IMG/VR virus record: IMGVR_UViG_3300045974_000198
DNA length: 64,000 nucleotides
Direction: 5' to 3' (one strand)
Origin: a virus
The translations under genes were made by a program, and so were the position numbers. Under the pieces are notes generated by a model. It saw only the letters and a program-made list of their open reading frames with translations, did no database searches and was not told the DNA's origin. Below are positions 10,471 through 10,973 of the stretch, in pieces. The stretch's first letter is position 1. Each line of letters opens with the position of its first letter.

Positions 10471-10497
10471 GGTTCAGTAGTTCAAATGGTTAGAGCA
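10471..10497 (+). pseudogene. orphan 5' half of an Asp-type tRNA
   Basis: GGTTCAG + D arm; pairs with orphan 3' strand CTGGACC at 10963-10969. Confidence 0.7.
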
Positions 10498-10553
10498 CAA
10501 AGATGACTTACATCGTTATTAACATTCATACCTTATATGGTATGGAGGTTGAT

Positions 10554-10892
10554 ATGATTTGTCAAAGATGCAATAAAGAATTTATCTATGTCAGGAAGAC
10601 TGGCAGTACAACTCAGTTCTGCGCTTCATGCATCACAGCAAGACGCAGAAAAAGACTAAAACTGAAAGCTTTAGAATATAAAGGTGGTAAATGCTCTATC
10701 TGTGGGTATGATAAATGCCAGACAGCTCTTGAATTCCATCATGAAGACCCAAGTGGAAAAGACATGGAAATATCATGTAATAAAAATCCTTCTTGGGCTA
10801 AGCTTAAGGTTGAGTTAGATAAATGTATTCTTGTTTGTGCAAACTGTCATAGAGAAACTCATGAAACGGCTCGTTCGTCTAGTCAGGTCTAA
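10554..10892 (+). CDS. HNH homing endonuclease
   Basis: YKGGKCSICGY, LEFHHEDP, KCILVCANCHRE; 3' end overlaps tRNA-Asp. Confidence 0.85.
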   Translation: MICQRCNKEFIYVRKTGSTTQFCASCITARRRKRLKLKALEYKGGKCSICGYDKCQTALEFHHEDPSGKDMEISCNKNPSWAKLKVELDKCILVCANCHRETHETARSSSQV

Positions 10893-10946
10893 GGCACTTG
10901 CCTGTCGAGCAAGGCACCATCGGTTCAAATCCGATACGGGCCGCCA
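10868..10946 (+). tRNA. trnD: tRNA-Asp(GTC)
   Basis: GGCTCGT/ACGGGCC acceptor, CTTGC-CTGTCGA-GCAAG, encoded CCA. Confidence 0.88.
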
Positions 10947-10973
10947 TGGGTTCAAGTCCCGTCTGGACCGCCA
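10946..10973 (+). pseudogene. orphan 3' half (T arm, acceptor strand, GCCA)
   Basis: ATGGG-TTCAAGT-CCCGT-CTGGACC-GCCA directly after tRNA-Asp. Confidence 0.75.

Follow-up and report, generated by a model that had tools for sequence, protein, structure and literature searches.

Positions 10471–10973 of a 64,000-nucleotide (nt) stretch of viral DNA (IMG/VR record IMGVR_UViG_3300045974_000198; the whole stretch is called the window below) hold a small HNH nuclease gene and a complete aspartate transfer RNA (tRNA-Asp) gene, which lie together between the two end pieces of another tRNA-Asp gene. Sequence comparisons make it likely that a homing-type cassette has broken the resident tRNA-Asp gene here and supplies a working spare. 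The cassette evidently sits in the anticodon arm of the phage's former bacterial-type tRNA-Asp gene, and the resident gene is, as far as its letters tell, reduced to two dead end pieces. The locus belongs to a phage tRNA region (25 tRNAs called by ARAGORN, all on the + strand, and more seen by Rfam only), and the inner tRNA-Asp is the sole one found, as neither ARAGORN nor Rfam finds a second Asp tRNA in the 64-kb window.

The outer 5′ piece (Table 1) consists of the 7-base 5′ strand of the acceptor stem, U8-A9, a D arm with a 4-bp stem and a 9-nt loop, and positions 26–27; the outer 3′ piece consists of the T arm, the 7-base 3′ strand of the acceptor stem, G73 and CCA. The two outer acceptor strands pair at seven of seven positions (one of them G-U). 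Relative to the intact tRNA-Asp genes of the metagenome contigs L206 and L207, the anticodon arm and variable loop of the outer gene (about positions 28–50, 22–23 nt) are gone, and because the anticodon-containing stretch is absent from the DNA, the outer tRNA is beyond restoration by excision. The insert (10503–10946, ~444 nt) contains only the HNH open reading frame (ORF) and the tRNA. Between the outer 5′ piece and the HNH ATG lie 56 nt of leader; the ATG at 10554 is six nt past a GGAGG (10544–10548), the stop codon is at 10890–10892, and the first 25 nt of the inner tRNA-Asp are the last eight codons and the stop of the HNH ORF. A10946 is common to the CCA of the inner tRNA and the outer 3′ remnant. 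A promoter and terminator scan of 9900–11300 gave nothing inside the cassette that exceeds shuffle expectation. The first-pass annotation, made from the letters of the sequence, had described orphan halves that form a complete acceptor stem around an HNH gene and an intact tRNA-Asp overlapping the 3′ end of that gene, and all of these elements are indeed in place.

Table 1. Features of the nested locus and of its paralogue in the 64-kb window
Feature	Coordinates	Strand	Basis and remarks
Outer tRNA-Asp 5′ remnant	10471–10497	+	27 nt, positions 1–27; read directly and found by the split-tRNA detector
Junction filler, 5 nt	10498–10502	+	Absent from intact tRNA-Asp and from the related cassette of entry L210 (alignment)
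Cassette leader	10503–10553	+	blastn homology to L210 begins at window position 10503
HNH nuclease gene, 112 amino acids, short form	10554–10892	+	PHROG 2255 match, alignment of relatives, AlphaFold2 model
Inner complete tRNA-Asp(GTC), G73, encoded CCA	10868–10946	+	ARAGORN; Rfam tRNA, 53 bits
Outer tRNA-Asp 3′ remnant	10947–10973	+	27 nt, about positions 50–76; read directly and found by the split-tRNA detector
Paralogous cassette: long-form HNH, inner CTA tRNA, outer split tRNA	26247–26904	+	Split-tRNA detector; same architecture

The identity of the outer pieces was determined with a signature made of their D-arm and T-arm letters, with the variable loop positions left free, that was run against one genome per prokaryote species. 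At least 120 stretches matched, holding at least 67 distinct bacterial tRNAs; among the matches listed, 66 of these 67 are Asp tRNAs that combine the GTC anticodon with G73, and the sole exception is a His tRNA with C73. When the letters were not relaxed, contigs L206 and L207, which are tRNA arrays, were each found to carry an intact tRNA-Asp(GTC), at 3345–3421 in L206, that agrees with the pieces at every base of a 20-nt D-arm stretch and a 15-nt T-arm stretch. Scoring the pieces against 357 phage tRNAs also put Asp on top, by a small margin only. On these signatures the outer pieces are Asp-type, as their resemblance to canonical bacterial tRNA-Asp had led the first-pass annotation to propose, so that the carried spare matches the isotype that was destroyed.

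The inner tRNA-Asp, which had been called divergent, does belong to a tRNA-Asp lineage other than that of the outer pieces; its D arm and loop differ from theirs, and its nearest relative in the comparison set is a phage tRNA-Asp (at 1911 in L014). Alignment with its relatives in L210 and L014 reveals double changes in 9 of 19 predicted pairs, located in the acceptor and T stems, and such compensatory changes make it look like a working tRNA under selection. By this comparison the inner tRNA-Asp is complete and structurally constrained. Its position 38 is A and differs from the C that serves the Escherichia coli aspartyl-tRNA synthetase as an identity element.

The nuclease and its tRNA recur together elsewhere. 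A search of 5.8 billion proteins returned relatives of the HNH protein at 76% (P0004, encoded on L210), 74% (P0005) and 69% (P0006) identity. L210 has a leader with 26 nt identical to that of the window, an HNH gene (76% identical in amino acids, and 76% in nucleotides over 383 nt) and a tRNA-Asp(GTC) that overlaps the end of the ORF. The homology ends exactly at the CCA of the inner tRNA, and the flanks and tRNA order are unrelated; this recurrence in a nonsyntenic array indicates that leader, HNH gene and tRNA-Asp move, to judge from the alignment, as one block. Upstream of the L210 leader a similar 5′ piece can still be recognized, though it has decayed; a 3′ piece is not visible in L210.

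More widely, 65 distinct loci of the HNH family were surveyed in IMG/VR and phage records, and in 30 of them the HNH ORF runs into a downstream + strand tRNA or stops at most a few nt short of it. In the commonest spacing the stop codon is U8-A9-G10 of the tRNA; many of these ORFs (L004–L083, IMG/VR relatives) have no stop of their own and end at this "TAG" of the next tRNA.

The window has its own second example. The split-tRNA detector (a 5′ half with U8, G10, A14 and a D-loop GG, a T arm, 7/7 acceptor pairing and a spacing of 150–1600 nt) gave two hits in the 64-kb window, both on the + strand (the − strand gave none), and each hit encloses one of two paralogous HNH genes. The paralogous nuclease is 51% identical to the nuclease at 10554 over 102 residues and is likewise followed by another complete tRNA.

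The best phage-record matches of the HNH protein all lie in tRNA clusters, and in the Bacillus phages Anthony and Vinny full-length relatives of it interrupt a tRNA-Asp gene. The Anthony HNH gene is flanked by 5′ and 3′ tRNA pieces whose acceptor strands pair 7/7. In Evoli, Hoody T, CAM003, Janet and Bastille the flanks are 94–99% identical to those of Anthony, ~500 nt fewer are present, and an intact tRNA-Asp(GTC) is annotated at the same place. Alignment with Evoli indicates that Anthony retains tRNA-Asp positions 1–28 and 34–76 and has ~530 nt in place of five bases (29–33), with the stop codon of the HNH ORF inside the retained 3′ part of the tRNA. Its left junction (after position 28) is within one nucleotide of that in the window (after 27). 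A comparison of related phages for the empty allele had been suggested as a check, and at the level of the nuclease family it is answered: members of this HNH family sit inside tRNA-Asp genes that are intact in sister phages, and this supports insertion. Two tRNA-Asp genes close to an HNH gene made Bacillus phage JBP901 a further candidate for nesting; it was set aside because its arrangement is plain HNH-tRNA-Thr.

Complete tRNAs nested within tRNA pieces were also found for other isotypes. L005 has a Lys(TTT) tRNA within pieces that include a Lys-type loop remnant, L211 and L212 have a Val(TAC) tRNA within pieces whose remnant starts with the Val anticodon, and in L022 one anticodon-loop sequence is common to the inner tRNA and the outer remnant. 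In L213 and L214 the inner tRNA is Asn, and its CCA is followed at once by the right junction, in the T loop, as in the window; in L012 and L019 the parts are in a different order. The left outer junctions of the nested cases fall between positions 26 and 34 and the right ones from position 32 on. At a minimum of seven loci the insert stops on its right side precisely where the inner tRNA stops, with CCA as its last letters if CCA is encoded and the discriminator base as its last letter if it is not. Elsewhere, same-isotype tRNAs flank or follow an HNH gene (L007 1825–1985, Ile-Ile; L067 1057–1826, Asn-HNH-Asn), and L005 (1337–1925) has a Lys in addition to the Lys nested in Lys; these three loci look like cases in which an old and a new tRNA copy coexist for a time.

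These comparisons bear on the other ways in which such a locus could arise. If the genome had possessed two tRNA-Asp genes and a resident HNH gene, a nuclease break followed by illegitimate recombination within the genome could have nested one in the other by local rearrangement, with no horizontal HNH and tRNA unit involved. SegB-dependent repeats of tRNA-Tyr and segB did arise in T6 (PMC13096335), and tandem same-isotype tRNAs beside HNH genes do exist, as in L007 and L067. Nevertheless, a purely local origin is improbable, given that leader, HNH gene and tRNA-Asp recur in L210 between unrelated flanks, that the inner and outer tRNAs of the window are of different tRNA-Asp lineages, and that same-isotype nesting recurs in unrelated contigs.

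Similarly slim are the chances that the outer pieces are kept for a function, either as portable homology arms or as an acceptor/T-arm minihelix that would direct RNase P and 3′ processing of the nuclease transcript. The pieces display no decay (all seven acceptor pairs, and D and T arms identical to those of intact genes), L210 keeps its decayed but recognizable 5′ piece beside the same leader, and the insert ends so often at the 3′ end of the inner tRNA. However, the intact look of both pieces fits recent insertion as well as homology-arm use or an RNA-processing role, 54 nt being too few to separate selection from a recent insertion event. In L210 the 5′ piece has decayed and the 3′ piece is not visible, so such pieces are not always maintained, and the 5-nt filler is unlike between the window and L210, which fits separate joining events.

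An intron-like element that is removed from the transcript, thereby restoring the outer tRNA, would suit the insertion point in the anticodon arm, and bacterial group I introns occur in tRNA anticodon loops and can carry nuclease genes. We give this almost no credence. The absence of positions 28–50, with the anticodon, from the DNA counts as refuting it, and the insert is taken up by the ORF and the inner tRNA. An Rfam search of 9800–11600 returned no intron even at E values up to 10, and Anthony is short of five exon nucleotides relative to Evoli. A strict cloverleaf test of six nested cases gave no junction pair that restores a cloverleaf (it was used in place of ARAGORN on all possible joins, which proved too permissive to judge restoration). 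Chance resemblance, or misassembly joining tRNA-like repeats, could be imagined for a metagenome-type contig with repeat-rich tRNA arrays, but is about as implausible, since ~0.23 split pairs are expected per window (an estimate based on the D-half-like and T-arm-like sites that the window actually has, the D half being defined loosely on purpose) and two were seen, both around paralogous HNH genes, the junctions lie outside repeated sequence, and complete genomes of cultured phages, as well as many independent contigs, share the architecture.

The enclosed protein is an HNH nuclease, as had been read from its letters: it matches PHROG 2255 "HNH endonuclease" (E 3.4e-29) and six further HNH PHROGs. 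Its score against Pfam PF01844 is 14 bits, under the 21.4 cut-off, NCBIfam gives no match, and the nearest PDB sequence is McrA (E 0.009). Among 26 relatives H62, H63, C47, C50, C95, C98, H99 and H103 are invariant and N97 is nearly so; all are present in the window protein, in which the His-His, Asn and His catalytic or metal residues are framed by two CxxC zinc pairs. Examined for the beta-beta-alpha-metal fold of HNH nucleases, an AlphaFold2 model built on the alignment of relatives has a predicted local distance difference test score (pLDDT) of 88 and a predicted template modeling score (pTM) of 0.74, and its top Foldseek matches in the PDB are mostly HNH domains (Cap5, Cas9 HNH, T4 endonuclease VII, McrA and Gme HNH), with a best E value of 0.06 and none below 0.001. 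Membership in the Seg-type GIY-YIG group was rejected, as the protein is HNH and a motif scan of the window gives no GIY-YIG motif. In front of the gene, a leader hairpin (10517–10554; −18.8 kcal/mol, z −3.8) covers the GGAGG and extends to the first base of the start codon. Matching hairpins precede the paralogue (26270–26325, z −3.9) and the L210 gene (z −3.2), with both arms changed.

The favored reading, a homing cassette that broke the resident tRNA-Asp and carries a replacement for it, suggests the following mechanism. By analogy with SegB of phage T4, the HNH protein would nick or cut intact tRNA-Asp genes near positions 28–34 in co-infecting genomes, and the break would be repaired from the cassette-bearing genome, copying the cassette. 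The carried tRNA would be immune because its sequence differs at the putative recognition site. A free-standing homing nuclease normally attacks the nuclease-free allele of its neighbor gene, and its own neighbor has protecting differences, and the spare would thus have the isotype of the broken gene because the neighbor's allele is the target; no foresight is needed. Selection for Asp decoding would then retain the spare. Both parts of the earlier proposal, destruction of the target's anticodon arm by insertion and supply of a substitute tRNA, agree with the loss of about positions 28–50, the family-level empty alleles, the L210 block and the shared isotype of spare and broken pieces. Nuclease expression would be held low by the leader hairpin, which would hide the ribosome binding site, and an RNase P cut at the 5′ end of the inner tRNA would strip the stop codon from the nuclease mRNA; the arrangement suggests that hairpin and RNase P processing together throttle the nuclease.

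Several observations count against this mechanism or limit it. The window's own empty allele was not found, the phage having almost no relatives in the collections searched: megablast of 9800–11600 against phage records returned nothing, nor did a search of IMG/VR with the exact outer 5′ piece; the neighboring ATPase has no relative in IMG/VR, and a neighboring ORF of 170 amino acids has one relative among the 5.8 billion proteins (60% identical, on a 1-kb contig). The tRNA cluster of Anthony holds no second tRNA-Asp, yet this phage is a viable isolate, so a spare can be dispensed with. L004, where an Ile(GAT) tRNA lies within a remnant whose loop reads like Lys, is a possible exception to same-for-same replacement. 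In the HNH tree, which has few resolved forks, the nucleases do not group significantly by the isotype of the tRNA attached to them (18 changes were counted, shuffles gave 19.8 on average, and 32 of 300 shuffles had 18 or fewer); either the partnerships are reshuffled or the 105-column alignment is too short. The window HNH lacks the N-terminal zinc-ribbon domain present in its paralogue and in the Anthony enzyme and could, judged by this difference, have lost target recognition, a worry tempered by the short form being common and conserved among relatives. Finally, the nested order, with a whole tRNA between the nuclease and the 3′ remnant, is not explained by the proposal.

Several known systems resemble the cassette in part. 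Homing nucleases encoded in introns and inteins have their gene at their own target site in a conserved gene, so that the site is destroyed and the carrier is immune, and the damage is undone by RNA or protein splicing. The placement inside a conserved gene is the same here, but nothing is spliced back and the damage would instead be offset by a second complete gene copy. P4-type elements and many islands insert in tRNA genes, carry a replacement 3′ part and leave an orphan fragment; they have an integrase and an att repeat identical to the 3′ part of the tRNA. Like them, the cassette enters a tRNA gene whose function would be restored from carried sequence, and it leaves orphan sequence. Unlike them, it has no integrase and no direct repeat, it brings a whole tRNA of an unrelated lineage, and it leaves orphans on both sides. 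An integrase-borne island was accordingly rejected as an identification: the 444-nt insert has only the HNH ORF and the tRNA, and a direct repeat is ruled out by the differences between the inner and the outer tRNA. In phage Aeh1, nrdA is split by mobE, a homing nuclease gene inside a host gene without an intron, and the halves still make a working protein; the outer tRNA halves here are without an anticodon arm, and no decoding tRNA can come from them.

The Aeh1 enzyme MobE is named in a study of SegB (PMC2330249), the free-standing homing endonuclease of T4 and T6 whose gene lies in the tRNA gene cluster. SegB cuts tRNA genes of nuclease-free relatives, with a preferred site in the tRNA-Asn of T2L, is inherited preferentially together with flanking tRNA markers, and its expression is thought to be limited by processing of the tRNA transcript (PMC2330249). 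Its gene, like that of the cassette HNH, lies among phage tRNA genes. It differs in being GIY-YIG rather than HNH, in lying between intact tRNA genes and in recognizing a T-arm motif, and neither a split target gene nor a nested same-isotype spare is on record for SegB. In T6 escape mutants, a 718-bp repeat of segB and tRNA-Tyr arose in which the 3′ end of the nuclease gene was removed at a microhomology to the 5′ end of the tRNA (PMC13096335), a laboratory precedent for an ORF fused onto the 5′ end of a tRNA. ORFs for site-specific endonucleases also lie in the tRNA gene cluster of T5, as cited in the SegB study (PMC2330249); in that citation neither nesting inside a tRNA gene nor a carried spare is mentioned.

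Homing nucleases in phage tRNA clusters are thus already known, and the nested cassette with a spare looks undescribed, as full-text searches of one literature library turned up no account of a split tRNA gene that encloses both a nuclease gene and a complete tRNA of its own isotype. To our knowledge, homing nucleases have been thought to persist in conserved genes only within self-splicing introns and inteins, or else between genes. Here and in many related contigs a conserved RNA gene houses a nuclease gene without recourse to splicing, and the damage is apparently offset by the carried spare. What is added here is the Asp identity of the pieces, a cultured filled and empty pair at the same tRNA position, a second copy of the cassette in another array, and the family's habit of ending its ORF in a tRNA (30 of 65 distinct loci).

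If this reading is true, conserved RNA genes could be invaded at little cost to the host phage. If the HNH protein does cut tRNA genes at the anticodon arm, the cassettes would drive an exchange of tRNA genes among unrelated phages, account for orphan tRNA halves in phage arrays and be a source of compact nucleases directed at tRNA genes. More speculatively, and on balance we doubt it, same-isotype HNH and tRNA cassettes might stand next to introns and inteins as a third general way for homing nucleases to enter conserved genes; the spare would be immune, and the end pieces would serve as portable homology arms through which the cassette homes into any genome with a similar tRNA, whatever the synteny. 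Bolder still, the coincidence of the insert's right end with the 3′ end of the inner tRNA might reflect a boundary fixed on RNA, the repair being templated by a processed transcript of nuclease and tRNA. The filled phages Anthony and Vinny and the empty phages Evoli and CAM003 are all cultured on Bacillus thuringiensis, so the idea can be tested at the bench. For annotation, a tRNA half beside an HNH gene marks a broken gene, and because HNH ORFs often end in a tRNA, gene and tRNA calls overlap.

Other tRNA-like features were seen along the way. L210 holds a second HNH gene of the same family, whose ORF ends 9 nt inside a tRNA-Gln, and an uncalled tRNA-like stretch (acceptor 7/7) directly after its inner tRNA-Asp (entry coordinates 2329–2733 and 3400–3485). 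In L206 a 1.8-kb insert (1536–3340) with a 446-amino-acid ORF, which by eye looks transposon-associated and TnpB-like, takes the place of the 5′ part of tRNA-Phe up to the anticodon loop; in the near-identical array of L207 the tRNA-Phe is intact (5891–5967). L008 (− strand, 2334–3095) and L072 (511–1272) have split-tRNA-like pairs, each 761 nt apart, that do not enclose the HNH gene through which the contig was retrieved; these may be other tRNA-gene inserts, or introns.

In the window itself, a tRNA-like gene at 12060–12138 (+ strand), just upstream of the ATPase gene, is not called by ARAGORN and scores 26.3 bits with Rfam, below gathering; it has a 7/7 acceptor stem, a normal T arm, G73 and CCA, with ~15 additional bases in the anticodon region. 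Three further + strand tRNAs are seen by Rfam and lack an ARAGORN call: 29636–29708 (45 bits; by eye, a nine-base anticodon loop), 29989–30061 (40 bits; by eye, a TAC (Val) anticodon and C at 33) and 32062–32136 (29 bits; by eye, a GTG (His) anticodon). With the TAC and GTG anticodons of the last two, the phage does therefore carry Val-like and His-like tRNAs. An HNH-motif ORF of another type lies at 61166–61282 (+ strand), distant from the tRNA region.

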